Part shown: piece by piece, positions 15,445 to 61,827 of the stretch | Layout of the letters: every line of letters starts with the position of its first letter | How positions within the stretch are numbered: the stretch's first letter is position 1 | From: Ruditapes philippinarum | Lineage: Eukaryota | Direction of reading: 5' to 3' | Length of the DNA stretch: 64,000 nt | NCBI RefSeq assembly: GCF_026571515.1 | Contig: NW_026861405.1 | Span: 62,001-126,000, forward strand | Position numbers and translations under genes: made by a program | The notes under the pieces: generated by a model | Told to the model about the DNA's origin: nothing | Database searches by the model: none | The model's input: only the letters and a program-made list of their open reading frames with translations

Positions 15445-15601
15445 CTGAAATAAAGAAAAAAAATCTAATTTATAATTATATTTTGAGGTTTTATTTCCAA
15501 TTTTGATATTGTGCTTAAACTTCATTTATATATAAACTATATATGTAAGATTTAAAAACATTAAATGGAATAACATCCATATACAAATGTTAAACACTTA
15601 C

Positions 15602-27319: not shown

Positions 27320-28527
27320 CGTTTTATAATACTGCACGTTTGTAACGTCGCTTTTCATTGGATAATCGTGACGGTTATATTATTAGTTATAAAGATTGTT
27401 GACAGGTTATATGGCCCTATATAAACGGCTATTTGTAAATATAACCCGAGCCGCTAGGCGAGGGTTATATTGCAAACAGCCGTTTATATACGGCCATATA
27501 ACCTGTCAACAATCTTTATAACGAATTTATAGTACAGCAAGCATCATTTTTTAAAGAAAAAAATAAGATTTCTTCACGAGTCGACAGCAGCCGTGTATAT
27601 AAAACTTTATTACCCTTCCAGATTTTTTTCGCCTTTTTGATTGGATATTGATCACCCGAAAGAAATTGATATAACCGAGCCAGACGGGTAATATACACGC
27701 TAAATTTCCCCGTTTGGTACCCAACGTTGTAAACAACATGCGCTGAGGTGATGCGCGTACGGTTCGATTTTACGCGGTGTAAATTCCGATTTAAAAGCAC
27801 TTTTTAACTGTCAAATGATCAATATTTTACCAAAGTAGAGTAATGATACATATTACCATCAGTATCGAAAAACAAATATGACCTTGTGAAAGCTTGATAT
27901 TAATTACAAAAAAGTGCGTTCAATAGACTACTCCTTTTCTCTTGTTTACTTTCGTAAGGTACGGGAAAAATACGTCATGTATTTATGTGACGTCATGTTG
28001 TGACGAAGAGGTATCCTAAAGGGAATCTTATTTCGACGTTTCATTTGAAACAGCAATGATTTTTTAAAAAATCGTCTAAACTCGGCAGGGGAAGGGTAAT
28101 AAAATTATTATTTTGGTTTTGGAGTGATATATGTGGATATATTACCTGCCAAGATAAAATATCACCCTCGCCTAACGGCTCGGGTAATATAAAATCTTAA
28201 CAGGTAATATATCCACATATATCACTCCAAAACCAAAATAACATATAATATAAACGTCACGATTATCCAATGAAAAGTGACGTTACAAACGTGCAGTATT
28301 ATAAAGCTTTATATACATGTACACGGCTTCTGTCAGTTTATTAAGAAATTACATTTTTTTTCCCGAAAAAAGAAGTTTGCTGTATTATAAATTCGTCATA
28401 AAGATTCCTGACATGTTATATGGCCGTATATAAACGGTTGTTTGCAATATAACGCTCGCCTAGCGCCCCGGGTTATATACAAACAACCGTTTATATAGGG
28501 CCATATAACCTGTCAAGAATCTTTATA
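27320..28527. mobile_element. Cluster of hairpin-terminated non-autonomous elements
   Basis: Near-perfect ~130-bp hairpins at 27386-27521, 28108-28240 and 28398-28527. An inverted ~55-bp segment lies at 27323-27378 / 28249-28305. Confidence 0.75.
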
Positions 28528-29564
28528 TCTAATAAAAGAAATAATATATGTTGAAACAGACATGTTATAGCAATCACCCTCTCCCGCGTTCGATCTGAAT
28601 TCTCGGTTATCAGCACTATCATTTGGATCGTTTAAATTCAAGTGGCGTTATTAATATAAGCAGTCAAGTGCTCGTGTTCTTAAGGCACTTAATTACTATT
28701 ACTTAGCTGGAGAAAAAAACCACATTACCATAAACTCACTCTGTATGATATAAGTTAGTGATGAAAGTTACAGGGAAATTACCATAATTATTATTAACAG
28801 TAGGTGGACTTGTGCGGATTTTTTTTAATTCAGTTCACAAGAAATGTGGACTCGTAAATTCAAACTGAAAGTATTGAGGGGTATCCTTTCAAAATTTATC
28901 TTGAGATCAAATTTCAATATAGGACATTCTTTTGCATCCGCAATTAATTATTTTAGTCTCCGGAGAAACATTTTCATCATTGGGAACAATTCTTTGAAAA
29001 AACAAGGGATTCTATTACGGGTTAATATATAGAGACATGCCTGCCAATGCTGGAATCTGAAAGTAACGAAAAAATATCAAAATCTAAAATTGAATATAAC
29101 TTACCGAAGGTATATAAAAGCTTGGATTTCAATTAGCAAGGAAATAATATTGAGGAGGAACCATTTAATAAACAGTATCCGAAACAAATAAAAAAAAATC
29201 AACCGTATAGAATTTTTGTACATAACTTTATTAATGGATTCCTTTATTACATGTTACCAATGTAAATATTTTTAAAAATGAAGTACATGCATCTAAAAAA
29301 GACGTTGCCGTAAAATCCAAGAAAAGTTTTAAGATACCTTTGAAAAGTGATTTCAAGCCAATTAAGCCAGAAGCGCGATTCCTTTATTATTTGTTAGAAA
29401 TATGAGCGTATTATGAAAAGTTATTTCTGACCACAAAATCAAATGATAAGATGACCAGTTTACAAAATACTGTGGATAGATTACGATATACAAGCCTAAG
29501 TCATAGACTACAAACTATATACGATGGTAAAATTTATGAAATGCAAGTCAGTCTTGTGTGTGCC

Positions 29565-29790
29565 ATGGTCAGATCACAGAATACGATGGTCAGATCACAG
29601 AATATGATGGTCAAATCACAGAATACGATGATCACATTACGAATACGATGGTCAATCACAGAATACGATGGTCAAATCACAGAATACGATGGTCAAATCA
29701 CATACGATGGTCAAATCACAGAATACGATGGTCAAATCACATACGATGGTCAAATCACAGAATACGATGGTCAGATGACGAAATACAATA
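29565..29790. repeat. 21-bp minisatellite
   Basis: Unit CAGAATACGATGGTCAAATCA with 17-bp deletion variants. Confidence 0.9.
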
Positions 29791-30047
29791 GTCAGGCTAA
29801 TGTTACTTATTGTATGTCATGGTCAGATGAGAGCATATGTTGGTCAGATTACGAACTACAATAGTCAAATTACAGAATACGATGGCCAGATAAGTACATT
29901 AGTGAAGACTAAATTATGCCTTGGTCAGACTGCAGAATATAAATTTGAATTTCATGAATATTTGCAAAATTAATAATTTCAATAATCGAAACAATAATAC
30001 ATGTAAATGCTATTTCATTTGTATACTCTTGTGTCTGACATGGGTTA

Positions 30048-30410
30048 TGTTACCACAGATCAGTCAATTTTACTCCACATGTGGTAAATGTTACCACAGA
30101 TCAGTCAATTTTACTCCACATGTGGTAAATGTTACCACAGATCTGACCATTTTACTCCATATGTGGTGAGTGTTACCACAGATCGTATCATTTTGCTAAA
30201 CATGTTAACTACCACAGAGCTGGCCACTTTTGTTAACATGTAGTGTTGTTCCTACAGACTTGACTTTACATGGATGTTACCACCGAGTTGAACATTTTAT
30301 TTCCCCATGTGGTGTTAAATTTACCACACAACTGATCATTTTACTTCACATCAGGTGTATATGTTACCATAGTATTGACCATTTTACCACACATGTGGTG
30401 TACAGGTAAC
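30048..30410. repeat. 41-bp degenerate minisatellite
   Basis: Unit GTTACCACAGATCAGTCAATTTTACTCCACATGTGGTAAAT, decaying rightwards. Confidence 0.8.
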
Positions 30411-32161
30411 CATTTGACTTCACCTACACACTTGACTCCAAATGTACCATTTGACTTCACCTACACACTTGACTCCAAATGTTGTGTATACACACATTAG
30501 TATACTAATATTTCTCCCTGAACACTTTCAAAACAACCACTTGATATCCACTTAAAACATTCTCTTTACAAAATACAGAACAAAGACTGGATTTTTTTCA
30601 TTAGCACTTTACTGACATATTAAAAGTAGGTGAATGAGTAACTATGTTTACTTGTATACATGATTCATAAACTTGTAAATTGTGTCATACAACAATATAG
30701 GATCCCAGTAATTAAACATAATGTTGTATCCCACTGAACAGTCATACTTATAAATTCATATTTACTGTACATACACTCATATTTTCCAACACCAGTAAGT
30801 CATCTGCAAGGCAAAATTTTTTTTTGGAATTTATCAAAAATAATTATCAAGATGGACATTTGCAAAACTACTCTATCTCTATGAAGGGGAGAGAGGGAAT
30901 AGGGAATAATATTACTGGAAACATAACTACTCTCTAAAGTAGCACATAAGAGCAGGTTTTATGTGCTAGTAAAATATGTATCAGTAGAAGGAATATTTGA
31001 ATTAAATTCCTTTTTTCAAAATTATATATTGAACATAATAACAGAAATTATTGCAATACTAGTAGAAAAGGTGGGACAGAACTCCCTGAACATGTGATTT
31101 ATATGCACAGGTCCTCCTTAGCTGGAAGTAACTTATCAAGTTTTGATATATTCAGGCTAATGGTTGCCGAGACAGATGGGGCGTTGTATATGTGCATCCC
31201 CATTTCAGGGGAGAGGGGTGGGGGAGGGGGTTAAAATGAGGTAGAGATGATAGATGAGAAAGTTTTTATACACTGGTCCCATCCAAGATAATTTACAGAA
31301 ATCTAAAATCTAACCATGTTTCTTATATCTTACATTAACTGCTACTTACAAGAAATTTCAGTCATATCAAAAAGTAGCCTCCATTCTTACACCAGATTAT
31401 ATTCTGCACTCACATGACATTAACTTATTCATTCAATGATGCACTTGTACTTGCACTTTTCTTACATGTTTCATGACTTCAAAAGCAACACATATATCTA
31501 GAGTGATCCCATTTCCTTACCATCTTCATTCAAGAGGATGTGACACTTAAGTGAAGTTTGGTTTTTCTAGAAAGAGATATGTATAGATTATTTAACCCAT
31601 AAACTTTCCTTCCAGAGGTTTTGGTTTCAACATTGATATTAAAATGTTAGACAAGGTTTACCTTTTATATAATTATAAAATAAAAAAGGAAAATACACAG
31701 TAAATTTTATTAACAAATTTCATTTAGACTTCTTCTGAAGTCATTAACATTGTGGTAATGTTTTTTGTTGTTTCTTAACACGAAAAGAAACCCTGACAGA
31801 GTAAAGTGTCATTGACAAAAACAGAATAAATATCATTGTCCATAACATAGGCAATATCGTCAAACATAGTCTGAGATTTAAATCAAGCATTTGTCGTTAC
31901 TACTGCTTTTTACAACAAACAAAAGCAACTAATACCAAACATATTGAGTACAGAGTAAACCTATGATGCTCTTGTAACAATCATGAAAATATCTTATAAA
32001 CAAACAGAATTCACATATATTCACAACAATAAACCTTCGTATACATGATTTACATGATTTTCTAAATATGTAAAATAACAAGTTGTAATTATTCAACACA
32101 GGAAGGGAAATCACTCTTGTTGTATTGATCAGATATTCTGACTTGTGTTGTCACACATTCT

Positions 32162-35100
32162 TTATTCTGATGCGGAACCTGATCCAGACTCGGACTCGGA
32201 GGCAGCCTCACCAGGATCCGAGTGATCCGGGGAACTTAATATTTCTTCTTCATCTGGTAACTACAAAATAAACAATGATTGTATAGTGGACAGATTTAAG
32301 ATTTTGTTTCTAATTGCCATGGTATTCAGACTTCTGCTTGTAACAAAATTAACTGAAATACCTTGATGCGACTTTATGCAAGGAACATTTTTACCAGGCT
32401 TCATAAACTTATTTTATTGGTATCATACAAGAAGATGTCTGAAAAAAGTTGTGATCCTAGACCTCAGTCAAAAAATTAAAATTATAGAGACCATAGAAAG
32501 TGAATTTATCAATAAACTTTTTTTAAAAAGAAATGTTTGTAATTTCCTTAAGAGCTCACAAGCACATACATTAGATCTGGCAATATTTTATTTGCATGCA
32601 TGCAGTAATTGCTAATTGTTATAACAGCACCATAATATTACATTCTGGAATATTTTATTTTGTTTAAGTGGAATATTCATGTCAAACATTCAATGTTACA
32701 AGTCTTTAGAGAATTGACCACAATATTATGGAAACAACATAATTTTACTGTTTGTAAATTTTATAAAAATATTTCATCACAAATACTTTATATCCTTTAA
32801 GAACAATGTGTAAACTTTAACTTTACAATAAAATCAGATTTATACTTACTGAACCAACATCAGATTCCTCCCCTTCTTTCCTCTGAGATCTACGTTTCAC
32901 ACCTGTTGGTTTTTCTCCCTCCGATTCTGAACCAGATTCTTCTACCTCCATTTTCTCCTTCTTCTCTTTCTTACTTGTTTTCTGTTTCTAAACAAAACAA
33001 GGGTAATATAATAAAATATTTCTGTAATATGAAACAATTACAAACAAGAGCCGGTTTAACCAGGTCATGCTCCCCGACTAAGTTTTGGACACAGAAAGTA
33101 TATCTTTTGTAGTTTCAGAGTTATGTCCCAGACAAAGTTCAAAGTGTGATAATTCCAAACTTAGGCAAGGCAGAGGTACTGTTCTTTGCACTGCACTTCT
33201 ACTCAATGAGATCTATCTACCGACCTTGCGTGTGACACATCTGTCTAAACATGGTGATCATTTCTGTGAAATAGTTGTAAAATCTGACTTCAAATAACAA
33301 AGTTATGGGCCGGACACAATTTTGCTGCAAGGTCATGCTGTGATCTTGACCTACAAGGTAGCAACCCAAAATTTTTCGGGGAGCATAACAACCATTTTGT
33401 TGAATTAATATCCCTGTTGTATGATACAACCAACTGAATGGAAGCATCTTAGTATTATGTGTAAGAATGAAAATGAATATTAAGCTGAAATGAAGCTAAA
33501 TTAAGTACCTGATACAATTTTAGCCCAATCATTTTTAGCAAGTTGAAGCAACTAGACATCCTTTCAAGATGACAATATGAATGGTATTGCCAAATGTCAA
33601 TAGGTCATTCATTTCAAGTATGTTACTATGTTAATTACAATTTTAAGAGTAAATAATCAAAATTATCTGATTTCCCTAAATAATGTTCTGCATGGTTTAC
33701 GAGTATGAAGCCATTGAACCATAATTATACAAATTCCACTTGTATGAGACACATCTAACTTACCAAACCAGAGTAAATAGAACATTTTATTTTCTTAAAT
33801 CACAATCAAGGGAGAAAACTGGAGAAGAAATATGTTTAATAAACATCATGATTTTCCAATGAATTATGTTACAATCATGCAGTGTTACATGTTGTACTGA
33901 CCTTTTTGAGAGGTTTATCATCCTCATCTTCAGACTCGTCAGATGATGACTCACTCTCCGAAATGAATTCCTTACTTTTATATGAACCACCAGCTCCTGC
34001 CTTAGATTCTACAGCTGGCTTCTTCGGACTGGATTTTGATTTCGACTTTGACTTTTTCTCACTTGGACTGCTATAATTATATATTTTACTCTGATAAATA
34101 AAAATTAATTCTGTAAAATGTTCAATACAAAATGCCCCACACAAAGTCATAATAGACTAATCAAAGACTTAAGATATCTGGAAAACTTATAGTCACGTTG
34201 TGCATATTTTCCACATCTTGTGCCCATATTTTTTTACTAAAAGGTTTACTTTTTCGTATCTATTTAGACATTGTTGCTTTTAGGATACACAAAAACTCTA
34301 ACAATTTGCTTCTCTGGTACAGTGTTTCTGCCAGAGCGCGTTTTTGCGTTTTTGGCGCACTATTTTCAGCCATGGCGCAATGAAATTTAGTTAGTGCGTA
34401 TTTTGTGACGCAAGAATTTCACCGTCGCTGATTTCAACACAAGTCAGATATACAGACTATAAACCGTCAATTCAGTATAAAAATGTACGGAATGTTTACC
34501 GTGGGCTCCACTATAATTTTAATGAGAAATGAAATTACCGGGTCCGTGGTCCGGCATTTAGCCAATTTCAACTAGTTAATAAACGCTTGCATTATACGTT
34601 ACTGCATATATTGAAAGCGCCCAAACAAATTATTTATTTTGTTGTCGTCATATTCTGCGAACGAATAACTGTCTGCTGGAAAATGCAGTCTGCGTATATG
34701 TTAGTGTTCATATCGTTCTGTGCTGTTCTACAGAAATTAGAAACTTCGAAGGAGCGATAGCGACAGGAGAATGTTTCTAATTTCTGTAAAACAGCTAAGG
34801 ATGAACACTTAACATATTTAGTGTCAAGCTTTATTTGGCCCTTGATTACGTCACTAGGCTGTACTATGAAGCACTATGAAAAATAGAAGGCGACTATGAA
34901 CGAATTTCAATATAGTATCGACTTTCTTTCTTCTATGAAAATTAACACACATAATTTTTAAGAAATACAGCGTTATTATTGGATGACAAATAATCCAAAA
35001 TAGCAGAGATTGACCAATTTCTTCACGAAAAATATACAAAATATTGTAAATAAAACTTATAAAGTGTTACCTGTTTTTTTTTTTTACATTTTTGTTAAAT

Positions 35101-38100
35101 TTATTGGCATGACCCTTATGAATTTGAAATGACCCCTAAAATATCATACAGGGGGTCATAAAAGACCCTCAGAAAATCAGAGCTGGCAGAAACACTGCTG
35201 GTATGTTTGTGTTAAATACTTAGTTAGTGAAACACCAAAATACAGATTTCCCCCATTATAAAAGTTTCAAGATATTTTGAGCTGCTAGTCATATATCAAA
35301 TGAATTCAAATCTAAAAACGTTCAAATCTTATAAATTGAATCTCTCACCTAGATTTTGGAGGTCCTTCTTCTTTAAGTTTTTTATTGTACTCCTTAATAG
35401 CAATATCATATTCTTCTTTGGCCTCCTTTGCTTTCTCTTCAAATGGCTAAAATGTATTACATATTCCTATATATAACTGTAAGACATGCCCCTGTTAAAT
35501 TACTGTCAAATCAGACTTTTTAAAAGAGATTAAATTTTGCTGTAAAATCTTGTGAATAGTAAAATTCCGAAACTTTAAATGTTTGCTCAATGTCATATAG
35601 ATGAAAAATGACTCTAATTTAACTTTAAATGGTCTTTATTTTGGGTATGTGATAAATAGAATAAATTTGTGTAAGTTCATTACTGAATTTATTGCACTCG
35701 TTGATTTAAATAATATTATGCTCGCCAGAGGCTCGCATAATATAATTTTATCAACTCATGCAATAAATTCAGTATTGAACTTACACTCATTCAATATCCT
35801 CTATTTATAATTAACATAGCAAAACAGTCTGAAATGTTGATTTCAAGAAATTTTGGCCTAGGGTAAATTTCTGATTTTTTTTGCTTGCTTTAAATTTGTA
35901 TCTTTCTGTAGTTACTTTCTAAGCTAAATCAGTATATCAGAATAAATAAGTTGTTTAGTAATGCAAGCTGTTCTGGTTTTATAATAATAGCAAAAGCAAG
36001 TCTTTTTGTCACCAGCTTTCTGAGTTAAGATGAGAAGAGCTGGTAAAAGACAAGGGCAGAAAAAAAACCTAGTAATACATAAATAAATTTATTACCTGAT
36101 ACCTTATATAAATGTAATTTGTTATTATTTACTGTTTTCTGAAATTCTAAAAACGTCAACATTCGCGAACTGTTGACCGGTCAATAGTTTCAACTGTTTC
36201 CCTCTCGTGCTCTGACGTCATTGACGTCATAGAGGATTCCCACTTGAAGCGTCCATCGATCTTGATCATGAACCAGATTTGACGTGACATAGTTAAAATA
36301 TTAAGTTTAATTATTAACATATACAGTGCAAAACTATTTTCTTGTTCCTTTTTTCTTCTGCAAATACTGTTAAATCAGTAGTTGATCAGGTAATAAAACA
36401 GTTATTTCATGTGTGATTTGGGAACAGTCAAACAGTTGTCACTCAGTGTCGGGGATAGTGTTTTGAACTGTTGCCCTCGGCCTACGGCCTTGGGCAAAAG
36501 TTCAAAACACTACCCCCTCCACCTCGGGCCAACAGTTTGACTGTTCCCAAATCACATATGAAATAACTGTATATTGTTTAATTATTTAAGTTTGGAAAAA
36601 ACTAAACAGTTTTTGAAAGTAAAATGTTTGTAATTTCAATATAAAAAGCAAGTCTATGTAAAATACTGAAACTTTTTGCCAAAATAAAAGATTTGCCAAA
36701 TTTTTAAAGAAAAAAAAAATCCCCCTTTTTTTTTTTTTTTTTTAATCACACAACACAGAAAAAATTATAGACAAAATTCCTTAAGTGGTAAGAAAACCTC
36801 GGGTGCATTTGGGAGTTTTTTCGGGCATTGAACGGGTCCCGGTAGAACTACAAATTTCCAAAAAGCAGTGGATAAAACCTTATATAAAAAGAAGGGTTGG
36901 TTCTACCCAAATGTTAGGGAAGTGTTTTTTAAATCAACAACCAAAACCAGGGACCCCCAAATTAAACTGACTCTGCACAAAAATAGGTTAATCTGTCATT
37001 AACCATCTTTTGAAATTTTTGGGTAGGTTGTTGAATTTCTTTCCAATCAAAAAGCCCAAATATATAAACAATAATCTTTTTAAAACTTTCAATAATTATC
37101 GGGGTAATTTTTCACCTTTTTTCCCCTTTTCTGTTAAAAACCCCTTCCCCAACTTCCCGCTTTTTTTTGAGAATCAAAACAAAGAAAAACCAGGATTTTT
37201 TATGTCTTTGTTTTTCTTTCTGACATAAACCAGATGAATATCAGTCTGGGACGTTTGGGTTTTTTGGGTCACGATCTTCTTTTTTCTTCTTTTTCTTGAC
37301 CACCTTCTTTTTAAAAATTTAAAAAATTTCAAATTTTTTTCTACTTTTTTTACAATGAGTTCCCAAAAAATTTTTGTATCATGCAGGAAAATTCCAACTC
37401 CAAAATATTTTATTCCTTTTTTTTAATTTTTTTCCAAATTGTTTTTTTTCCAGGGGTTGTGACCTCAGTACCACTCAAACCAATCATACCTGGTTAAAAG
37501 GCAGATACTTTTTATCTTTCCCCCTCCCTCTATACTTATTTTCATTAATTTTTGTTATATATGATTTACATTAACATTCTGACTAACAATATGCTTCAAT
37601 CTACATTTGTATATCTTTAACTATGAACATTTTCTGTAATTTACCACAGTTTTAGAAGATTTAGATTTTTCTCTCTTCTCCATTTTTTCTTGTTTTCTCC
37701 TTTCCTTTTCTTTCCTCTTCTCTGCCTTCTTTTCTTCATCTTGTTCACCACCAGAGCCACTACCTTCCTGAAGTTATACCAATCATTCATTTTATGCAAT
37801 CTGTCATTAATACTAACACCCCCATCAAACTGTGTACTTGCATTTTCATGATACATATACAGAACAGTAAAGCCGACATAAACCAAACAGTGAGGCCGAC
37901 ATAAACCAAACAGTGAAGCCGACATAAACCAAACAGTAAGGTTGACATAAACCAAACAGTGAGACAGACATAAACCATACAGTGAGGCCGACATAAACCA
38001 GTGAGGCCGACATAAACCAAACAGTATGGCCGACATAAACCAACTAATGAGGCCGACATAAACCAAACAGTGAAGCAGACATAAACCAAATGGTAAGGCC

Positions 38101-46333: not shown

Positions 46334-46366
<33 letters not shown>

Positions 46367-49300
46367 TGGACTGGGGGTTACACTTATGCCTCCAACCCCA
46401 GCAATTTATGGCAACGACAAAAAAAACCCACCTTTATGTGAGGGTCAAAGGTCAAAAATTATAAAAAAAAAATTGGCAATAGCTCAAACTTACTTGAACT
46501 GTATCTACTTCTTGGTTAGCTGGATCACCAGGAATATGAAATCGTATCTCCATTAGAGAGACCGCGGCATCGTCATTTTGATGAAACTCTAGCGTGATCT
46601 CATTTTTGGCTGTTGTTGTTGTAGATACATTGTTCAGTGGAAGCTCAAATGCCAAGTTATTGTCAATCATAAAATTCAAACCATTACCTGAAGATAACAG
46701 ACTAAACAATACTAGTAAGAACTAAAAATGTGTCCACAAGACACTTATGACCCTACTTCAGTTGTATGTAACACTGGCTCAGATGAGCTACAAACAATAT
46801 GCCTAAATCCTGAAATAAACATTACGGATAAGTGTTTATGAACGCCTTGTTGGAATTAAACTACAGAAAAGAAGTGGCCACCAAATATCATAGTTAATAT
46901 CGTCAGTTTGGATTCAATATCAATTGTCACTGATGTGGAACTTGTAGCAATAATTTTTCCATAGTTAAAATCCATGCTACAGTTATGGTTCTTAAATAAT
47001 GACCTTCAATTATGCTCCAAAGATGTATGAAGTTTCAAGTAGTAGTTAAAGCAGAACTTTACCCCAAACACTAAGAACATGAATTTGGTAAGTTCACAAA
47101 CTGTAATACCAGTAATTCAGGAACAATCTGGGCCAGTTAAGGTTTTTGGAAAGTGGCCTTCAATTATGTTCTGAAGACATGTGTCAAGTTTCAAGGGAAC
47201 ACTGACTCTTCAAGCAAATCTTGAACTAGTAAAGTTTAAGTTCACATAAAGGGCTATTATTCCATTGAAATCCATGCTACCGTTAAACCCATGGAAAATT
47301 ATCTCATAGGTAGGTGTAAAGTTTTAAGCAAATACCTTCCATGATTGGTAAAATAAACAGTTGGCTGCTAATAAAGTAGCTACTAGCATGCATAACTTTA
47401 ACAAAAGGTATTACACAGTCACTTTCACATGGGTGAGCAAGATAGCTTCATTATTCTCTGAACAGTTTTATCAATGTCCAGATATACAATCCAATTATAT
47501 TTGCACATATTAAATTTACTGCATCAAAATCTGCATACCCTTTTTTAATTTCATGCATAAAGGTCCTTGAATTCAACATTATAGGGAGTTTTATTGCTTT
47601 ATCTTTATAGGAAATACCTTCAAATTTAGCCTGTCCCCAGTTCCATCCTTTAACTGAAAGATCAACAGGTTCCAGCTTCGTATTGTAATTACGTGAAATA
47701 AATGATCCCAGTTTGTCCTGATCCTGTAAATCAAAAATTCATAGATAAAATATAGATATAAATTTAAACAATGCAAATCAAGGAACAATTAAAACATACA
47801 AGTCAACCCAAAATCTATTATCGAATACATTTTTTTAAAAAGTTTTCCCTATTATTCCAGACATTATAAAAATAAGTGACCTCTGGGTTGGGGTTAATAT
47901 CAGGAACATAATGCGATCTATCTTTCTGGAGATCTACTAGAATATGCCTCACATTGAAGCTTTGAGCCTGGAAGATGTTCAAATTTTGTTATCAATCAAA
48001 GTTCTGTACAGAACAAAAATATTTGAACATATTAAGATTTGATATTTAATGTAAAGAACGTTCCTTCCAAGATTCATCTTCATTTACCTTAACCTGACAA
48101 GGTGTCTTTTTGTAGTAACATGAGCTTAAACTCAAATCAATAAATGAAGACGGAAGTAAAACAGGAAGTACAGGTATAGATTGACTAAAACAAGCGCCAT
48201 AGAAAAATTTCAAGAAGCACAATTATACTGAAAAAGAACTATTTTTTTAAATATCTGAATCTGTATCTTACTGTTTCTTTAAAGCCATCAAATCTGTGTA
48301 TATGTCCACTGTGTAAGACAATTTTGAGACAGTAACCCCTTGCTCTCTTCAACCACTTCACCTCATCTATATCAGTTCCTTGAAACTGATCAACCCTTCC
48401 GGTCTTTGTATTTTTAAACACTATACTGTTCCCTTGAAACTTTAAACGACCTGGATTCTGTAAAGAACAAATAAGATTACTTTTACCCTGTTTATCCAGT
48501 TCAGAACATTAAATCCTAAAATTGCAATTAGGCAGTTCTTAAAAAAATGTTTGTTTGCAGTAACCCGACCCAGAATTTTCAAGGTGGGTAGGTAGGTCGA
48601 TAATTCTTTTATTATTTTTTTTTTATTGAACTGTACTCCCAAATAAACATGGAATTTCAAAATGCTGGACAATATATACTTTGATAAGCTGGTAACAATT
48701 AATAAATTGATAACTGAATCCTAATTTAATAAGAACTACATTTTATTTCTTCTATTAACCTTTAAAAAACGAAAACAAAGCACAAGGCATAATTTTCTGA
48801 TTAAAAAAAAAAATTTTTTTTATCCAGACCATGAAAAAAAATATGAGTAGGGGCAAATTTTGTGAGTCAGTCGCGTTACTGCAAATAAACATTTTTTTAA
48901 GGATGGCCTTAATTTTATCTCTCAGATGCTTTTAATTTTAGTGTTTTGTTACAGTTTCCAAAATTGTACTCATTGGCCATATGGCTGAATCAGGGCTCGC
49001 GCTGGCGGGAGCCAATGAGCAAATTGGCTCCAAAATTATTAAATTGGCTCAAAAAAAACATGATTGGCTCCAACTTACGAAAAGTATAACTTTTGGAATA
49101 TCCAGTCTAAATTTAGCATTTGCTATTTTAAGAATGGAAAAGTACACATTTGGTTTACCATATACAACTTCCGCTTTACCGCTTCTTATCACAAAAGACA
49201 GCGACACAGTCTCCTTTTTGTGGGGTCATTGACTGGTCTATATTTGGTACTTCCCTTCCAAATAAAATATTGTTATAAACAGTAACACAGTCTAATACAT

Positions 49301-50938
49301 TGACCTCATGGTATGTTTACATGTTTATCAGCTGATAAATACGACACTAATTGGTGTGAAAAATACCTGTGGCAGATTGTTAAATGTGCACTGGATAATT
49401 GGTCTTTATATTCAATATAAAAACAATAACTAGCGGCATCTTAAGATTATCGCCAATTAAATCAACAGTTTGGTTATGAAATGGAGGACTTTACGGTAAG
49501 TTTGCATTCATTAAATTTTATTGTTGTTGATAAAAAGATCAAAGGAATTATGAGTTATAGAATATAAGTTGTTTTTTTTTAAATTGCAAATTAAATCGGA
49601 CCTAAAAATTGTTAAAAAAAAAAACTTATATAAATTTGACAAGGAGTATATTTGACAATTAGTATTCCTGGAAAAAAATTGACCTTACTTTGTACATAAC
49701 ATATGTCTGGAGCATTCATTTACAAATGGCATATGGCTGTGAAATGTTTAAGGAAAATTCAAGAAGCATACAAAATATTTTTAGGAAACTTATGCTAATA
49801 ACTTTACTCTTATAATGAATAGTATGTCATTTTTTTCCTGAATTATGTTTAGTTTAGAACTTTTCAATATTCTTTTCTTCATTAATAATTATTCTTCTTG
49901 CTCTCAAATGTTTCTGTTTTTATAATTTCAGATACAGATAGTCCTCAAACAAAGTCTTTGGCATTAACCAAGCAAGCTGAAGCAGCACATTAGAATGTGG
50001 TTCTGATGTCACTGTCATGCCACTGACTTAGATTTTATGAAAACATTGCTGAACAACTTAGCCTGGAAAATGTTATAGCTACTGAGCTGCAAGCTTTTAT
50101 GATCAGTTTTAATGTGATAAAAATGTAGCTACCAAAATAAAGTTGTAAAATATAGTTTATGTTTTTTTTTTTCTTCTAAATATCTCATGCCTTTTAAAGT
50201 GTTCCATATATGAGATAATGCAATAAGTAAGTCTGACAATTGAATTCTGGTTATTCTGCAGTACCATGATTGCTTGTTTGAAAATAAAATACAGGCACGC
50301 AATTTTCGCCGCGAAAAATTGGCTCAAAGAAAAAATCTGCCAGTGCTAGCCCTGCTGAATTAATCATAGCTGAAGTTATAGTGTCAGATTTAGTATTTTG
50401 TATGGAAGATAAAATTCTACTCTCTATGTTTTAGCTATGTTTCTGACAAATTTGTTTCACAGTCATCAATGCTGTTTTCACATAATATGCAGTAAACATG
50501 TTCTTAATCTAAACAAGTCAAGAGAAAAAATTACATATTTTTTAAATATGTATTCATTTTTGAGGCTTAATGTACCTTTAAAAAGCTTATTTGTTTGTTT
50601 GGTTTTATGGTGCACTAACACAATAGTCATATGGTGCCAAAACAGGAAAGATGATTCTGGCTAACCTTGGGTGTTACAAACTTAAAGCAACACCAATGGT
50701 CAAAATGGAGCTATGAAATGATTTGAACCCGTTTAATTGTCTCTTACAGTCATGCAGGGATAAAGGAAGACTGCAATTCTGAGGCCTCAACCCTTAAAAG
50801 CAACCCATCAGCCACAAGGGTGGTCTTTAACAAAATCTTAACATGCTTAACGTTAGGCTTATCACCACACATAAGACTTACTAAAGCTCCTCTCACTTCC
50901 TGTACAACATCTGGATATTCTTGATAGTCACTGCTCAT
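32162..50938 (-). CDS. SSRP1: FACT complex subunit SSRP1, 18 coding exons, ~780 aa
   Basis: Exons (minus strand): 50938-50882, 48457-48272, 47723-47618, 46687-46494, 45649-45555, 44093-43958, 43463-43360, 42778-42653, 41886-41665, 40268-40196, 39784-39649, 39428-39343, 37767-37645, ~37310-37116 (corrupted), 35446-35349, 34070-33902, 32987-32850, 32260-32162. All clean exons are GT-AG with matching phases. Motifs: [136 protein letters not shown]. Confidence 0.95.
33043..33400. mobile_element. Helentron/HINE-like fragment in SSRP1 intron
   Basis: Starts with an AACAAGAG...ATGCTCCCC terminal motif and contains AAAGTTATGGGCCGGACAC and TGATCTTGACCT core motifs like the other intronic copies. Confidence 0.45.
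34320..35197. mobile_element. hAT-like non-autonomous element with 6-bp TSD
   Basis: Perfect 15-bp TIR CAGTGTTTCTGCCAG; CTGGTA on both flanks. Confidence 0.85.
35660..35805. mobile_element. Solo long hairpin (CTCG-apex family)
   Basis: GTGTAAGTTCATTACTGAATTTATTGCA...TGCAATAAATTCAGTATTGAACTTACAC with apex ATGCTCGCCAGAGGCTCGCAT. Confidence 0.7.
36397..36572. mobile_element. Long hairpin terminus (CTCG-apex family)
   Basis: ACAGTTATTTCATGTGTGATTTGGGAACAGTCAAAC...GTTTGACTGTTCCCAAATCACATATGAAATAACTGT with apex GCCCTCGGCCTACGGCCTTGGGC. Confidence 0.7.
37116..37310 (-). other. SSRP1: SSRP1 first HMG-box exon, frameshifted in this sequence
   Basis: The minus strand gives recognisable pieces (K-rich run, DRDP, PKRP, FIWFMSE, NPGFS, SKKAG) in shifting frames, inside a homopolymer-distorted block. 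Confidence 0.65.
37862..38156. repeat. 23-bp minisatellite in SSRP1 intron
   Basis: Unit GAGGCCGACATAAACCAAACAGT, ~13 copies. Confidence 0.9.
38222..38418 (-). mobile_element. Degenerate tRNA-derived SINE
   Basis: Minus strand: GGGGTCTGTGGCTGAGTGATTAAGGTC (A-box head) ..GAATTCTTTCAT..AGGAAGC..TTACGGAA..CTTCCTCCAC..AAAGCTGGAAAGTTACCATGTGACC. Confidence 0.65.
40567..41610. mobile_element. Helentron/HINE-like element with ~140-145 bp internal tandem repeats
   Basis: ACAAGAGCACCGCTAGGCGGAGC hairpin end, ~7 units containing CCTATGAAGTTTGAA..GGGCCAAATGGAACTTAAGTTATGC, and a (CGGA)n microsatellite near the other end. Confidence 0.75.
43276..43333 (-). mobile_element. SINE 3' tail (same family as 10021-10228)
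   Basis: Minus strand TGAAATACTGTTGGAAAAAGGCGTAAAATGAAACAAACAAACAAAC. Confidence 0.7.
44272..45489. mobile_element. Helentron/HINE-like element carrying a 160-bp satellite (BIV160-like in size and context)
   Basis: AACTAGAAATGTGTC..ATGCCCCC start. AAAGGGGCAT recurs at 44631, 44792, 44953, 45113 and 45273 (160-161 bp period). It ends with GGAATGAC repeats and the terminal hairpin ATGCCCCGGCCATTACATGGCGGGGGCAT. Confidence 0.8.
48531..48908. mobile_element. PIF/Harbinger-like MITE (TTA TSD)
   Basis: GGC...GCC termini with a ~35-bp imperfect TIR (CTTAAAAAAATGTTTGTTTGCAGTAAC / GTTACTGCAAATAAACATTTTTTTAAG); TTA on both flanks. Confidence 0.7.
48991..50354. mobile_element. hAT-like non-autonomous element with 6-bp TSD
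   Basis: TIR CAGGGCTCGCGCTGGC / CAGGGCTAGCACTGGC, subterminal ATTGGCTC repeats, CTGAAT on both flanks. Confidence 0.85.
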
Positions 50939-51678
50939 TGCTATGTTTTAGAGACTCCTGTAATAACAATAGAGAGATGTCATTGCTTTTCCATTAAAAA
51001 AATATCAACAAAGTCTAGGCCTTCTTTTTTTCAGTATTTTGGAAAGCCACTAACAGTTTTACACCATTGGAATTGTTGGGAAAATTGTACACAGTCTTAA
51101 TTGGGAATTTCAGACTAATTAATTGAAACTACTGAACACATGATAACAAGAAACACTTCAATGCTAATATTGATTAACTTATGTGAATAGCTCACCTGAC
51201 ATTGCTATCACTCAGGTGAACTAAATATATAACAAGACCTGTCTTCGGACAGCACACTCCATTTTTCTCTGCGTTGAGGGGGCATACATTTTGCAAATAT
51301 GCAACAGGCTTAGCAGTCAACAAATATCTCAGGTTCGAAGTGAATACCTTTCATGGTTTTTGAGAAAAAAGGAAAATATTCCAAGTTAAAAAAGGAAATA
51401 ATTAAGCAAGAAGGGCTTTGAGGAAATGATAATAGCGTTAGAGTTCAGGTATTGCACTCTTGACATCAGAATTTTCAATGTCAACATTGCAATAGACACA
51501 CAACTGTTAGTGTTACCTCTCAAGAAAGTTAAAATCAATTTAATTTACTTAACCATAGAAGAAACATATTAATAAAAAAAGTCTGATATATCTCAACCAC
51601 TGAACAAAGTAAACAACTAAATCAGCATTTTAGGAGCTGTTCGGTTTTGATGGTTATCTGGTTTTGCATGTACCTTAC

Positions 51679-52411
51679 CAGGCTTCGCGAAACTGCTGAA
51701 ACATTTGCCTGACATCCGGTCAGACAAACTTTCAATTCTTGTCTGACCGAAAGAACTTTTGTCTGACCGAATTTTTTTTCCAAATATATGTATATGGTAA
51801 TACGTTTGTGTTTTTTTAAAGACATAGGAACTTTTAAAGATTTGCAACACAATTTTATTCTCTTAAATAAAACATCAGTTTATCCAGATTGATGGACTCT
51901 GTCTGGAAATTTAAACATTCATGATCAAAATCATCATCATCATATGATCTTTATAAAATTTATGACACAATGTACATTTCATCTTATTTTCTTCCTCGTT
52001 AAAAACCAACCACGAGCGGCCATTTTTCCATTTACCCACAAATTTTCTCGGCAGGCGCCTGGACTCGTATTTCTTTTGTTTCGCTTTTTTCCTTCATTAG
52101 ATAATTTACGTTTTTTGCATGGCGTAGCGCCAACGTAATAATTTAATAATGCAGTAACACCAACATTTTCTTCCGAGTACAAGATCATTGAAAGTTGTAT
52201 GTATCTAATTTGATTGGACACTAAAAATGAAACGGCGAATCAAAACTCGTTTTACATTTTTTTATTCAAGGGAGAAAACTCGGTCTTGATTGGTCTTGGA
52301 TATATCCCGGTATTCGTACCGGACATAAGGTCTGGAACTCGGAAAAAAATATCGGACCGGCCTAATTTTTGTCGGACATGTCCGACGGTCCGGCAACTTT
52401 CGCGAAGCCTG
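51679..52411. mobile_element. hAT-like non-autonomous element with 6-bp TSD
   Basis: TIR CAGGCTTCGCGAAA, subterminal GTCTGAC/GTCGGAC repeats, CCTTAC on both flanks. Confidence 0.85.
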
Positions 52412-52587
52412 CCTTACCAGTATGGCTCATTATAAAAGATTGTAAACTTATATTCAAGTCTTTTTTGCCCTTTTATTGCAAACCAATTTACCATTAATAG
52501 TCATACAAATTATCAAATACACATGGTCATCCAACATATCAAACATTTTAATAACAAATGCATAATACAGCAGAAACTCCTTAGATT

Positions 52588-53155
52588 AACAAGAGCTGTC
52601 GGTAGGACAGCAACGCTCGACTATTCTTAGTGCTTGATAGTAAAAAAACCTTGAAAATGTAAAATTTTCTGAGTTAACAAAAGGGTAAAATTTTTCTTTA
52701 AGACCATGTTACAGTTATAGGCCTTGAAGAGAGTCCTATTATGCTCTCAAAGATTAAAGAATAAAATTTCAACTTGTTTCAAAGCCAGATGTCAATAGAA
52801 TATGAAAATATCTGAGGTGGTATGCAAACTTAAATGTAAATTCTAAGTCGAAAAAGGGGCATAATTCTGTCAAAATGCTTGATACAGTTACTTCCTCCTG
52901 TCTACAGGTTAGGGTCATGATGGTGAACAAGTGTGCAAAGTTTCAAAGCCATATGTCAATGGACTTTGAACATATTTGAGGTATTACAAAAACTTTAACG
53001 TAAATTCTAAGTCGAAAAAGGGGCATAATTCTGACAAAATGCTTGATAGAGTTACCTCCTTCTGTCTACAGGTTGGGGTCATGATGGTGAACAATAGTGC
53101 AAAGTTTCAAAGCCATATGTCAATGGACTTTGAAAATATTTGAGGTATTACAAAA
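52588..53155. mobile_element. Truncated Helentron/HINE-like element with ~164-bp repeats
   Basis: AACAAGAGCTGTCGGTAGGACAGC hairpin end; AAAGGGGCATAATTCTG..AAAGTTTCAAAGCCATATGTCAATGG units at ~52853 and ~53017. Confidence 0.7.
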
Positions 53156-53354
53156 AACACAAATTGACCTAAAGGACATCAATTGCTTAAAATTTAAATA
53201 GGTCAAATTGGACCACTGTAAACACCTACCACATGACATGGAAATATGGCACTACTGTGATATTATTTAGTGTTGTTCACTATTGAACAATTTTTTGACT
53301 GATTTGGTTTTGACTTCACGTGTGTCTGTAAATTTGACAAAATAATAGAATGTA

Positions 53355-53760
53355 GGCCTGGTCAAGATGGCGGGAAAAAGAGCTGACAAATGACCTAAAC
53401 ATTAATAACAGATCTACAACGTATATATTCATCGAAATATATTGAAGACAACCACATAACAATAAGTATACATTTTTACAATTGTCTACTCTTTCTTTGT
53501 AAACTAAAAAATTGTCAAAAGTTATTTACACGTTAAATGTTTAACAAGAGCTATCCAGTGCTGCTTCTTCTTCTTTTTCGATCACACCGACGCTTGCGCA
53601 ACTTATTCAGCTAAACCCCGTAAACACGTTCCGTTTGTTCTTGGTTGTAAAGTACTAAATACAGCTGGCTCACCACGACATATTTCCTGACCTTTATTGT
53701 ATGTTATACTTCAGTACTCAAGTCGTTACGTTCTACGTTGACAGTATACATAAAAATAAA
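53355..53760 (-). promoter_or_regulatory. Candidate SSRP1 promoter / 5' non-coding exon region
   Basis: The ATG exon starts with an acceptor at 50958-50959, so an upstream exon is required. This region is locally CpG-richer and has a YY1 motif CAAGATGGCG (53362) and a GTGAG donor at 53673-53669. Confidence 0.35.
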
Positions 53761-55107
53761 AAAAATGGTTATAATTAACATAACAGTGAAATTGTCAGAA
53801 TTTGAAATGCATGTCTTTAAAGTGAAACCCATATGTAGCAATAAAAATATTTACACATGTTAATTTTGGTAATGAACTTTACGTGCTAATTCTGGTAATG
53901 AACTTCAAAACATTTGCGTGATGAAGTTAAAGATGTGAAATACCAGGTTTGATATCAAACCAGAGACTTGTATTACATATTTAAATCAAGCTCTTTGATC
54001 AAACTTAAAATTCCTTAACTTTTTTTTTTTGGATTTCAATTAATTATTCTATATTTTCACACTGGCCATAGCTTTCGCAGAAGCGGTGGGTCTACCGCAG
54101 CGACGGTGGAGTATTCGTCGCAGAAGCGGTGGATAAAATATGGCCGTTTGCTGTTGTCGGTAAGTATACGACAGAATTTTGTTTTATGTTTTAATGTTTT
54201 ACTGGAAACACTCAGTGAGACTGGAGCCCACATATGTACTCTTTCAACCTATTACACGGATACGGTGCAATTCATTGCCGTTTATGCAAACACTTCTGTA
54301 CAGTTTGATGAGGGGACGCCACTTTTGCCTAATTTTGGTTAAAACACATACAAATGTGTGCAAAACGACCCCATCATACATCGGCATCACATCCGATCAA
54401 TGATACTTTCACAAATTAATCATAATTTGAAAAATTGGGAAATTATTATTGCCTGTTTATAAAATAAATGAAAAAAATGTTTTCGTCGCAGACGGCGGTG
54501 GATTCGATTGCAACGCAGTGCGGTGGACCCGATACCATTTTTGTATATTTTAAGAATTTAACTTGACGTAAGGCACTTTTTAATTGAGTGCAGCCATTTT
54601 CTTACTTTGACATCTGCCATAATTATCATAGAATAATCCACGTTCAACAATTTATTGCGGGTTATTACTAAGTATCAAGTATATTTGATTGTGAATGCAC
54701 CATTCCAGTTGAAAAGCGCAGGAAAGTAAGAACATATAATAATTTTATATATAATGCCCTTTATCATATTTGTATTTCCAAGTTCATATTAGGGTTCATG
54801 CATTTGACAACCCGGACCGTAGAGGAAACGGCGGAAACTAAGAGTCATAATATTTGACCTTGATGCACCACCGAAAGGTAATATAGCGATGTGCAGGGAA
54901 TTCCACAAATGTGATGAATCCAGCCAAAATATCACATGTGTCAGACATTTACATGTTACACGTGATCACGTGTTATACCTTATAACCAATGCCGATTTCT
55001 GACTTATTAAAAGCGGCATGGCAGGTATGCATATATTTTTGCATTACGGCATATGAGTTATAAAAACATAAAGTTAACACATATTCATGGCATTTTCGAG
55101 AGTATCA

Positions 55108-56128
55108 TATTAGTTATAAAGATTTTGAAAGGCTATACAATATGGCCGTATATAAACGGTTGTTTGAAAATATAATTCATAAACATAAATTTTTTATTAA
55201 ATAAACAGCAGTCGTATATATAAACTTTATAATACTGCATGTTTGTAACGTATTTTTTCATTGGAAAATCGAGACGTTTATCTAATTATAGAGCTCTTTG
55301 GTTTATTTGTAACTTTATTTTCTGATTTTTACAACATGTACAAGTATTATAAAGAATTTCGATCGATAGCCATTAATATTGCGAACAACCGTTTATATAC
55401 GAACATATAATCTGTTGGATTTATTTACAACGAACTCATAATACATCAAGCATTTTTTGTTAGAGAAAAATGAGATAATTTCATAAATCGACGGCAGCCA
55501 TGTATCTAAAAAGTACATTGTATGTATTTATTACATGTTTTGCAGTAGATTACTGAATTATTACGGTTAATTATATTCTGATAATTTCACAGTAATGATT
55601 ACCAAATATAATTTCACAGTAGCCGAACTATATTTGGCGTAAAAATAAAATATTTATCATTAATGAATGTTTTTTTCAGCGGAAATGTAGTCAATCATAA
55701 TAAAAAATGTACGTGATAACTGTAGTTCGTAAATATTTTCGAACGTTGTGCTGAAAAACATCTAAAATCTAAAAATAATCATGGAATTATATTTTGCTTC
55801 AACATTGTGACGTCATATTTGATGACGTCATGAAGATAAGAGCATGACGTTACGCGGCAAAAATCAGTAAAATGGTGTAAAAATCGTTAAAAAATCATGA
55901 AATAAACAGAAAATTTGTTTGTTTTACATGTAAGATCAAATAATATTTCACTCGTGAACCCCAGCTATTATATTTTCACTCGTGGCTACGCCACTCGTGG
56001 AAAATATTGCATCTGGTGTTCACTCGGTGAAATATTTTTCGATCTTACACTGAAACCAACAAATATCCTCTATATAAACGTCACGATTATCCAATGAAAA
56101 GTGACGTAACAAATGTGCAGTGTTATAA
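55108..56128. mobile_element. Second cluster of hairpin-terminated elements, nested in the CAC element
   Basis: Degenerate copies of the 27.4-kb hairpin family (55108-55282, 55347-55505), a hairpin at 55912-56066 with apex CACTCGTGGCTACGCCACTCGTG, and the ~55-bp end segment at 56073-56128. Confidence 0.7.
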
Positions 56129-56342
56129 ACACATACACGCAGAATTAAGGAGGTTCAATATAATTATATTCTTTAAATTAAGCATGATGCTAGAATATGA
56201 TAACATAAACATTTAGAGCAGAAAAAAACTTAGGGGTCACCGATCTCATTTCCTGTACGTGAATTTGATTTTTTCCTTAATTGTGGTTATTTCAAGGTCA
56301 TATAACTTAAATGCAAGTCTGAAAAATCTTTTTTCTCCCGCT

Positions 56343-61625: not shown

Positions 61626-61827
61626 CTGGCACAGATAGATCTGAATTATTTGTAGATCTCAAGTTTAGCTGATGTTTTTGGTGTATGAATTGGAATATTG
61701 AGGAAATAGAACATTTCCATTTTCTAAAGTTAATCAATGGACGGTGCATTATAATTATTCTTGCAGCTTATCATTGAATAGATCAATTAACTGCTGCTTT
61801 TATCCCAGATTGTACAGTTATAATGTA

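Follow-up and report, generated by a model that had tools for sequence, protein, structure and literature searches.

Six long hairpins lie in a 64,000-nt stretch of Ruditapes philippinarum DNA (contig NW_026861405.1, positions 62,001 to 126,000; hereafter the window). According to an earlier note, their stems are unrelated but share a CTCG/CTCG mismatch next to the apex, which would imply that an enzyme recognises the folded strand, much as at integron attC sites or HUH-type hairpin ends. This raises the question of what these hairpins are, how constant the mismatch is, and what kind of enzyme might act on it.

The hairpins are the ends of five element families

All six hairpins are real, and lie where they had been placed or at most 2 nt away. 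Their predicted DNA folds have z scores of −8.8 to −17.7, and for each of them none of 200 shuffled sequences folded equally well or better. The TC/TC 2×2 loop that had been described for all of them is predicted in five of the six, but the degenerate copy at 28455 lacks it. The division into five different stem families (A, B, D, E and F) stands, as none of the ten pairwise comparisons of 45-nt arms gave an alignment above z 2.7. The 36476 apex had been called degenerate; it is not, since CTCG/CTTG is the usual form of family E (27 of 31 copies). The window hairpins are the ends of five non-coding transposon families. Family A is represented twice, by the hairpins at 27445 and 28455, one copy being nested inside the other.

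27324–27380, plus strand: 5′ part of the outer family A copy (A2), up to its internal ATAT-N6-ATAT site
27381–28304, minus strand: inner family A copy (A1), inserted in reverse in the internal site of A2 and interrupted by B
27382–27526, minus strand: terminal hairpin of A1, apex 27447–27462 (minus strand), fold z −17.6
27607–28247, plus strand: family B element, 641 bp, in the internal site of A1; copies 96–99% alike
28089–28102, plus strand: internal inverted copy of the first bases of B, which pairs across the head-to-tail junction in locus L038
28108–28241, plus strand: terminal hairpin of B, apex 28167–28182, fold z −17.7, followed by a 6-nt spacer (28242–28247)
28305–28534, plus strand: 3′ part of A2, with hairpin 28391–28533 and degenerate apex 28455–28470
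35643–35804, plus strand: 3′ end of a family D element, with internal complement, hairpin (apex 35721–35735) and 7-nt spacer
36089–36573, plus strand: family E element, 485 bp, with internal complement 36384–36396 and hairpin 36398–36570 (apex 36476–36492, CTCG/CTTG)
55108–55527, no strand assigned: older family-A-like remains hosting F and continuing at 56074–56129, 68–91% alike to A copies
55528–56073, plus strand: family F element, 546 bp, with internal complement near 55896–55905 and hairpin 55915–56062 (apex 55979–55997)

A and B thus form a three-deep nest (B in A1 in A2). The sequence immediately preceding the A hairpin is complementary to the start motif of A2 at 27324. The B insertion site in A1 consists of ATAT (27597–27600), 6 nt, the cut, and a second ATAT (28248–28251), and the flanks of B, once joined, match uninterrupted A copies without a gap. 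The D hairpin carries up to three YTCR/YTCR loops, two of which are clean in the window copy, a copy without the 5′ start. Family F copies are 99% alike, and reads and one contig skip exactly 546 bases at F. Because the F flanks are multi-copy, this skip may reflect a paralogous repeat rather than an allele, but it fixes the boundaries of F either way. For E, contigs from four runs were compared with the D/E region, and none joined across the element as an empty allele would.

The mismatch is kept among copies and across the genome

A pattern built on the A/B apex has 1,286 matches in the genome, compared with 0 for the reversed control; the looser pattern YTCR-loop-YTCR was uninformative (322,227 matches, with 264,696 for its control). 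With any letters allowed in the 2×2 loop beside the apex, a scan gave 143 hairpins, of which 113 carry TC/TC, 30 carry TC/TT or TT/TT, and none carries another combination, a count that is biased because most of these loci were fetched by their likeness to the window families. Over 600 kb of unselected sequence, the motif was judged by eye to be present on 7 of 20 long inverted repeats. The mismatch is also kept across the genomic copies of individual families (A, 14/21; B, 40/44; D, 36/38; F, 31/32). A further pattern, admitting both the mismatched and the corrected form, found 2,656 sites, and a hand count of the first 50 gave 28 mismatched sites and a single one in which correction had made the pairing perfect; most of the remaining 21 belonged to a different repeat or were half forms.

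Elements coding for a tyrosine recombinase have the same ends

The suggestion that Crypton-type elements drive these hairpins was borne out: in ten families of the same genome, intact or near-intact ORFs for a DUF3504 tyrosine recombinase lie between ends of this design. The alternative link to HUH enzymes found no counterpart in the delimited elements. The recombinase-coding elements are 2–4 kb long, and their recombinases are 19–59% identical across the ten families. Among 20 recombinase loci tested, the predicted start was found with the ORF inside in 14, representing the ten families, although two of the 14 are weak; it was not found in five (L291, L301, L305, L307 and L310), and one hairpin belongs to a passenger element.

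Full-length Y1 and Y2 elements are 2.2 kb long and have a single recombinase ORF, with no reverse transcriptase or DDE transposase. The catalytic residues R, K, HxxR, H and Y (R-K-H-R-H-Y) are present in both, and the Y1 copies are 96–98% alike. The Y3 copies, in the frame read, stop short of the last catalytic motifs, and Y4 has a second short ORF beside the recombinase. The Pfam family PF12012 matches Y1–Y4 with E values of 1e-20 to 2e-29, and the homologues that carry a name, from molluscs and cnidarians, are annotated as 'KIAA1958-like' or 'ZMYM2-like'. A structure model of the recombinase (pLDDT 89.8) has QRICH1 as its best fold match and also matches Cre, with a TM score of about 0.6, against 0.50 for the integron integrase. 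The orientation of the ORF relative to the hairpin varies, with five families of each kind, and corrected or flipped apices occur in the recombinase elements L127, L315, L339 and L370.

Two of the window families can be connected to these elements. Family D has both ends in common with Y2, of which it is the short partner, and family F and Y3 have the same terminal motif and type of apex. For A, B and E we found no coding element whose ends match, and these three families are filed as CryptonA-type by design and target only. The L301 recombinase, with an A-type hairpin downstream, was considered as a partner for A and rejected, as no A start was found upstream of it. Stem alignments among representatives exceeded z 4 in only 2 of 171 pairs, both within the D/Y1/Y2 group.

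The 27 non-DUF3504 recombinase loci of the genome (DIRS-like where checked) had no such hairpin as their own end within 1.5 kb. One of these loci held an inserted B copy.

A strict TC/TC hairpin was present 250–1200 nt downstream in 14 of 30 metagenome recombinase loci with room for one, compared with 5 among 1,200 stranded windows of host DNA taken without selection. The strict test was missed by the other 16, of which 7 are without any long hairpin. The closing pairs in the metagenome took the forms CTCG/CTCG (14) and the compensatory CTCA/TTCG (8) and TTCG/CTCA (3).

Insertion sites, spacers and the informative strand

The target is a weak palindrome, WTAW-N6^WTAW. Target duplication was not detected, as overlap lengths over 123 insertions were no higher than with shuffled pairing. 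The elements themselves, which start with TTA or TTG, share one layout: the start, further in an inverted copy of the start, 5–6 nt, the long hairpin, a 6–7-nt spacer and the end. Because the inverted start copy precedes the hairpin, a strand joined end to start would fold in the manner of an attC site. The central spacer of such a fold would be unequal (7 versus 5 nt in D, E, F and the recombinase families, 6 versus 5 in A and B), and in all delimited families the crossover is exactly the point where the base of the hairpin adjoins the internal complement. The comparison with attC extends to its details: an internal stretch is complementary to the start, the spacer is unequal, and the crossover falls at one of the spacer's edges. 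End-to-start reads were found for F (n = 5), with which circles and tandem copies are equally consistent. A rule whereby the internal complement sets the base before the cut fitted B, D and F, and was abandoned as it fails for E.

In a hand count, 98 of the first 100 listed D ends carried their own spacer with at most two changes. The same spacer was seen on 3 of the first 100 listed starts, all three at tandem junctions, and on none of the 97 non-tandem starts. That the spacer stays on its own end is expected if one strand is exchanged. It should be said that one-sided retention fits any insertion without a heteroduplex, and not only one-strand exchange.

On the opposite strand, what had been described as a TC/TC mismatch reads as a tandem G·A motif (CGAG/CGAG). 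Of 19 representatives, 12 have an apical loop of the GNA/GNNA type on the GA strand and none has one on the TC strand, and the D/Y1/Y2 loop forms a GNA on neither strand. Unpaired stem bases on the TC strand are pyrimidines in 68 of 92 cases. By standard DNA folding energies the GA strand is favoured by 1–6 kcal/mol in B, D, E and F, and the TC strand in A. Standard folding parameters model sheared G·A stacks and GNA loops poorly, and the energies alone do not settle the preference. The informative strand is probably the GA strand, with its tandem G·A pairs, rather than the strand with TC/TC. Most of the G·A loops are 20–70 bp away from the crossover. From their placement, the loops most likely decide which strand folds, and those nearest to the crossover may also be touched by the enzyme.

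A proposed folded-strand mechanism and its alternatives

The account that we consider reasonably probable, judging from the sequence, is that each hairpin forms the terminal structure of a short non-coding element with a CryptonA end design, and that a recombinase joins a single folded element strand to a double-stranded target. The ends would be joined into a circle, either by one strand being copied out or by a hairpin being extruded from a double-stranded circle. The CGAG/CGAG strand would then fold preferentially, because it can form sheared tandem G·A pairs and mostly GNA/GNNA mini-hairpins, compared with weak T·C bubbles on the other strand. Pairing of the end-to-start junction with the internal copy would give two binding arms and an unequal spacer, as in integron attC sites, and the recombinase would cut the folded strand at the spacer's 5′ edge, exchanging it with one target strand. 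Exchange of a single strand at the spacer edge would make spacer homology unnecessary. Finally, replication would complete the insertion. Both the folded-strand chemistry and precedents for it have been described (PMC5027507, PMC3458562, PMC13037366, PMC8163305).

The ends might instead be Crypton ends at which an ordinary double-stranded circle junction recombines, the hairpin serving some other step: priming second-strand synthesis, templating the junction, as is thought for the internal complementary region of DIRS elements, or binding an accessory domain. We regard this as unlikely, though far from negligible. Most of the G·A loops are outside the recombinase footprint, the recombinase model is most like Cre, a review covers GNA mini-hairpins at the origins of single-strand replication in phages (PMC13037366), and the active CryptonF of Chlamydomonas fits donor–target site recombination (PMC9977147). 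Against a double-stranded junction stands the exact meeting of hairpin base and internal complement at the crossover, and two-strand exchange should give a spacer that is matched to the target and swapped between sides, neither of which is seen. Movement of the short elements by an HUH Rep-helicase, as Helentron-like (HINE/DINE-1) rolling-circle elements, is very improbable. HINEs likewise combine a 3′ palindrome with a subterminal inverted repeat and have no reported target duplication, but their palindromes are 5–10 bp and their targets T-rich (PMC4067079), compared with stems of about 50–90 bp, a two-armed palindromic target and a 6-nt spacer here. Moreover, the long elements found with these ends code for a DUF3504 recombinase and, at 2–4 kb, are too short for a Rep-helicase.

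The constancy of the apex might also follow from one recent common ancestor, with no function involved. The D, Y1 and Y2 stems are indeed related, and copies of one family will carry the mismatch simply through descent. The remaining families' stems, however, do not align and their recombinases are only 19–49% identical; the closing pairs vary in a compensatory fashion while TC/TC stays constant; and although palindrome correction does occur (one of 29 informative sites, and L127), young families are still mismatched. We give common descent very little credence. Scarcely any weight attaches to a hairpin that acts in RNA, as a structure of the element transcript. In five families it does lie on the coding strand, 300–2,100 nt downstream of the ORF, but in five others it is upstream with the GA strand coding. 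A reading of the apices as RNA UNCG tetraloops was also discarded, since it does not pair; the loops close as 3-nt loops.

Relation to known systems

The proposed folded-strand elements share with CryptonA a single DUF3504 tyrosine recombinase related to QRICH1, ZMYM and KIAA1958 (Kojima and Jurka 2011, PMC3212892; Glomhopper, PMC13465315), an autonomous form of about 2 kb with far more numerous short derivatives and no described target duplication (PMC3212892, PMC13465315), and, in the window families and their partners, the lack of DDE-type terminal inverted repeats. The published account of animal Cryptons found no terminal repeats, with supplement entries given as 'n.d.', and it models movement as the recombination of a double-stranded circle at short direct repeats (PMC3212892). 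Here, in contrast, the ends are defined, by an internal complement, a long hairpin, one-strand G·A motifs and a palindromic target. We found no printed description of this Crypton end design in the literature searched.

The parallels with integron attC sites are a site that lies at the 3′ end and needs the start of the same or the next unit to be complete, an unequal central spacer, a recombined strand that is purine-rich where unpaired, with a GAA terminal loop, a crossover at one edge, tandem arrays, and stems of variable sequence (PMC5027507, PMC3458562). Unlike integrons, the elements are eukaryotic, encode their own enzyme and use many dispersed AT-rich targets instead of one attI. The enzyme is DUF3504 rather than IntI, with a fold closer to Cre, and the GTT/AAC core is absent; attC has single extrahelical bases where these longer stems have symmetric tandem G·A loops. 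The elements would work like attC but are not an integron.

Exchange of a single strand pair by a tyrosine recombinase is also known from CTX phage integration by XerC (PMC3442271) and from the SE elements of Vibrio (PMC9345347), although those systems are bacterial and use fixed targets or several proteins. In Vibrio, a circular copy of one SE strand is made while the donor stays in place (PMC9345347), and by analogy this could be a fitting model for the rise in copy number. DIRS elements have a tyrosine recombinase and an internal region complementary to the element ends, but also code for a reverse transcriptase and carry long terminal repeats (PMC13465315). Helentrons, HINEs and DINE-1 resemble the present elements in their 3′ stem-loop, subterminal inverted repeat and proposed single-strand intermediate (PMC4067079); the partners found here, however, code for a tyrosine recombinase and not a Rep-helicase.

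Implications

Active algal Cryptons both excise and multiply (PMC9977147), which the double-stranded circle model as published does not explain (PMC3212892). The end design, together with near-identical young families (F, 99%; Y1, 96–98%), gives exact substrates and an exact target, so that the mechanism is testable with oligonucleotides and one small protein. The design also provides a rule for finding Crypton ends and for classifying thousands of unassigned hairpin repeats; extrapolating from 7 in 600 kb, the genome would hold roughly 10^4 of them.

More broadly, we lean slightly towards the view, drawn from sequence features, that animal CryptonA elements are the eukaryotic counterpart of integron cassettes. 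Their self-coded Cre-like recombinase would read structure rather than sequence, on one folded strand that sheared G·A pairs would mark out, and exchange a single strand into practically any palindromic site rich in AT. It would be the first eukaryotic case of tyrosine recombination on a folded strand, recently active and present in thousands of copies across molluscs and probably cnidarians. If true, it would offer a compact integrase that places single-stranded DNA without duplication or homology, and would bear on the evolutionary origin of the human genes ZMYM, QRICH1 and KCTD1.

Hairpins and the elements that end in them

All six hairpins that the earlier note had listed in the window were found, with fold z-scores of −8.8 to −17.7 against shuffles, and its five different stem sequences represent five families with unalignable arms (10 pairs, top z 2.7). 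Each hairpin ends a short non-coding element of family A (copies A1 and A2), B, D, E or F. Element ends, which are sharp, were set by comparison of copies. The window is otherwise animal DNA (34% G+C); it carries a LINE fragment and genes for an UNC-93-like protein and IL-17.

Features in the window
2277-3344, minus strand: UNC-93-like membrane protein ORF (Pfam E 3.6e-15)
14839-15525, minus strand: interleukin-17 family ORF (Pfam E 5.9e-10)
27607-28247: family B element
36089-36573: family E element
55528-56073: family F element
59990-61645, minus strand: LINE reverse transcriptase, 551-codon open frame, 5' side cut
3' end only: family D, a 350-bp family

In every family the hairpin stands last in the element; a spacer of 6-7 nt follows it, and ahead of it lies the internal complement, in which the first 10-24 bases of the element recur in inverted form. 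In natural tandem copies (loci L038, L124 and L317) the stem runs across the end-to-start junction and an unequal bubble remains (most families: 7 versus 5 nt; A and B: 6 versus 5). An exact 546-base skip at F was present in three reads of one run and one contig of another. The left cluster is a nest in which A2 contains A1 (reversed) and A1 contains B, both insertions lying at family A's internal ATAT-N6-ATAT site; the context of B inside this site is common to 8 of 30 B loci. The site itself (27377-27380 with 28305-28314) is a perfect target that collects A, B and F into cassette-like nests.

Other repeats were also observed. A miniature element at 11876-12102 has long terminal inverted repeats and an inner palindrome, lacks the TC/TC motif described below, and has similar elements in many of the fetched loci. 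Positions 17230-21284 are taken up by a tandem repeat of 4 kb whose G skew is strong, reaching 0.6, and an inverted duplicate of 560 bp, 91% alike and 4.5 kb apart, lies at 54057-54616 and 59135-59672.

The apex motif

The apex-motif hairpins are a real and very abundant feature. Across the genome (1.41 Gb, 15,874 contigs) the A/B apex occurred 1,286 times, against 0 for the reversed control. The mismatch, a TC/TC 2x2 loop where the strand reads CTCG/CTCG (the TC strand), had been described as conserved; this holds for most copies of A (14/21), B (40/44), D (36/38) and F (31/32), and E usually has CTCG/CTTG (27/31). When loops adjoining the apex were scanned for any letters, 113 of 143 hairpins, from loci mostly retrieved by likeness to the window's families, had TC/TC, 30 a TC/TT or TT/TT variant and none any other 2x2 loop. 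Five families encountered by chance in flanks also carried TC/TC, one as TTCG/CTCA, and in unselected host DNA (60 x 10 kb) the motif was seen by eye in 7 of 20 long inverted repeats.

Related loci were also present in metagenome contigs (80 loci, 30 of them with 900 nt or more of downstream sequence). A long hairpin followed in 23 of these 30, and a strict TC/TC test was positive in 14, for which the background was 5 of 1,200 stranded windows of unselected host DNA. The closing pairs showed compensatory variation (CTCG/CTCG 14, CTCA/TTCG 8, TTCG/CTCA 3); a further 20 loops differed from these, seven of them being GA/GA, and some apices had three stacked loops. Prediction of the element start from the internal complement also worked in L311 and L317.

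A seventh long hairpin (34696-34817), with a GA-rich apex, may be a decayed family member in reverse. The stretch 56343-58589 holds roughly three ~770-bp units arranged head to tail. Every unit contains clustered short hairpins rich in GC, several CTCG motifs and a loop that reads TTC, or GAA on the minus strand; this array may be a further single-strand element. L315, L339, L370, L127 and L110 have copies in which the apex has been flipped or restored to perfect pairing with end orientation unchanged, a change that template switching in palindromes would be expected to produce.

Elements coding a recombinase

The earlier guess at a Crypton tyrosine recombinase as driver is supported: DUF3504 elements of ten families share the hairpin end design. 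In the DUF3504 search, 150 of 393 candidates were scored and 149 kept, with wider stretches taken for 40. Y1 and Y2 are families of 2.2-kb elements with a single recombinase ORF, copies 91-99% alike, and the same hairpin design at their ends as the window families. D and Y2 have both ends in common, and in L124 a D copy stands head to tail behind Y2. For A, B and E the recombinase loci yielded no partner with matching ends.

The far element end was predicted from the internal complement in 20 recombinase loci, and in 14, from the ten families, the predicted start was present with the ORF inside. Five predictions failed, and one more hairpin proved to be the end of a short passenger element. 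L300 and L294 were weak positives, the L294 boundary being confirmed by a second copy; in L292, L295 and L296 the wrong-strand control scored above the prediction owing to an internal repeat, and their copies diverge exactly at the predicted start. Among 27 non-DUF3504 recombinase loci (DIRS-like where checked), none had the hairpin design as its own end within 1.5 kb.

The recombinases of the hairpin-ended elements are 19-59% identical, and the named homologues of the genome's recombinases occur in clams, scallop, oysters, mussel, snails, octopus and cnidarians, which makes a bivalve the most likely host. In the Y2 protein the catalytic residues are present; its structure model (pLDDT 89.8) matched QRICH1 and then Cre (TM ~0.6), and gave TM 0.50 against integron integrase.

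Two arrangements were noted in passing. L061-L090 hold many intact DIRS-like recombinase ORFs with long inverted repeats and a methyltransferase-like frame upstream. L124 and L317 come from two different organisms, and in both a short derivative that shares the start of the recombinase element stands behind it, head to tail, which suggests a preference of the enzyme for its own ends as target.

Insertion scars and the strand probably exchanged

For 123 insertions of B, D, E and F the flank overlaps were those of shuffled pairing, so there is no target duplication. The pooled target reads W-T-A-W, six free bases (the last mostly T), the cut, and W-T-A-W, which is the shape of a tyrosine-recombinase core. 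Joined flanks matched uninterrupted DNA elsewhere in 44 of the 123, most without gaps, some being self-tandems. A two-strand exchange would require a matching spacer or put the element's spacer on either side. A D-end pattern that left the spacer free matched 1,672 ends; in the first 100 of them the spacer was exact in 77, carried one or two changes in 21 and three in one, and was foreign in one. Ahead of the start, the spacer was found in 3 of the first 100 of 1,453 starts, all three tandem junctions. Tyrosine recombinases cut each strand at the spacer's 5' edge. A crossover there means that the GA strand, the complement of the TC strand, is exchanged; the motifs favour this strand too.

On that strand YTCR/YTCR becomes YGAR/YGAR, that is, tandem G·A pairs, and a pyrimidine-GA-purine context favours the sheared G·A form. 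Unusually strong sheared stacking is described for tandem GA-AG mismatches, with mention of sheared GA-AA (PMC8163305), the form present in family E. Apical loops are GNA or GNNA in 12 of 19 representatives on the GA strand and in 0 of 19 on the TC strand, the exceptions being the D/Y1/Y2 group and four others; loops of this type are reported to give very stable DNA mini-hairpins (PMC13037366). Unpaired stem bases on the TC strand are pyrimidines in 68 of 92 cases. Motif polarity tracks the element ends and not the ORF, which lies on either strand (five families each), and this argues for a role in DNA and against one in RNA.

Comparison with known systems

Kojima and Jurka 2011 describe animal Cryptons as without terminal repeats, and the word 'hairpin' is absent from six of its supplementary files (PMC3212892). 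The Glomhopper paper describes repeats as variable or poorly conserved, and 'hairpin' does not occur in its main text (PMC13465315). Kojima 2018 reports conserved termini common to salmon Cryptons and human Eulor5/6 (PMC5753468), and active CryptonF are reported both to excise and to multiply (PMC9977147). The superfamily is known; within the literature searched, mostly titles and abstract starts outside Repbase Reports, subscription journals and bioRxiv supplements, we found no description of the end design.

At integron cassette recombination sites (attC), a folded single strand has been shown to integrate through one strand exchange, with replication finishing the process (PMC3458562). attC sites are described as having a central spacer that stays unpaired, unpaired parts rich in purines and, in most cases, a GAA loop on the strand that recombines (PMC5027507); the clam elements likewise have an unequal spacer at the junction and mostly purines among the unpaired stem bases of the strand presumably exchanged. 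Unlike integrons, the clam elements lack a GTT core, the integrase IntI and the platform site attI, and the hairpin-ended element is not an integron. For a single-strand source there is precedent in SE elements, from which a circle of one strand is reported to be copied out (PMC9345347), and in CTX phage (PMC3442271).

The main rival retains the Crypton identity and gives the hairpin only an accessory role. Against the folded-strand reading, the scars are compatible with any insertion that makes no heteroduplex, computed folding energies barely separate the two strands, and some recombinase elements have corrected or flipped apices. Integration of a folded single strand is nevertheless the best-supported reading, and we consider it rather probable: the folded element strand would be joined to its target by one strand exchange, and replication would complete the integration, a mechanism that we infer and that is directly testable.
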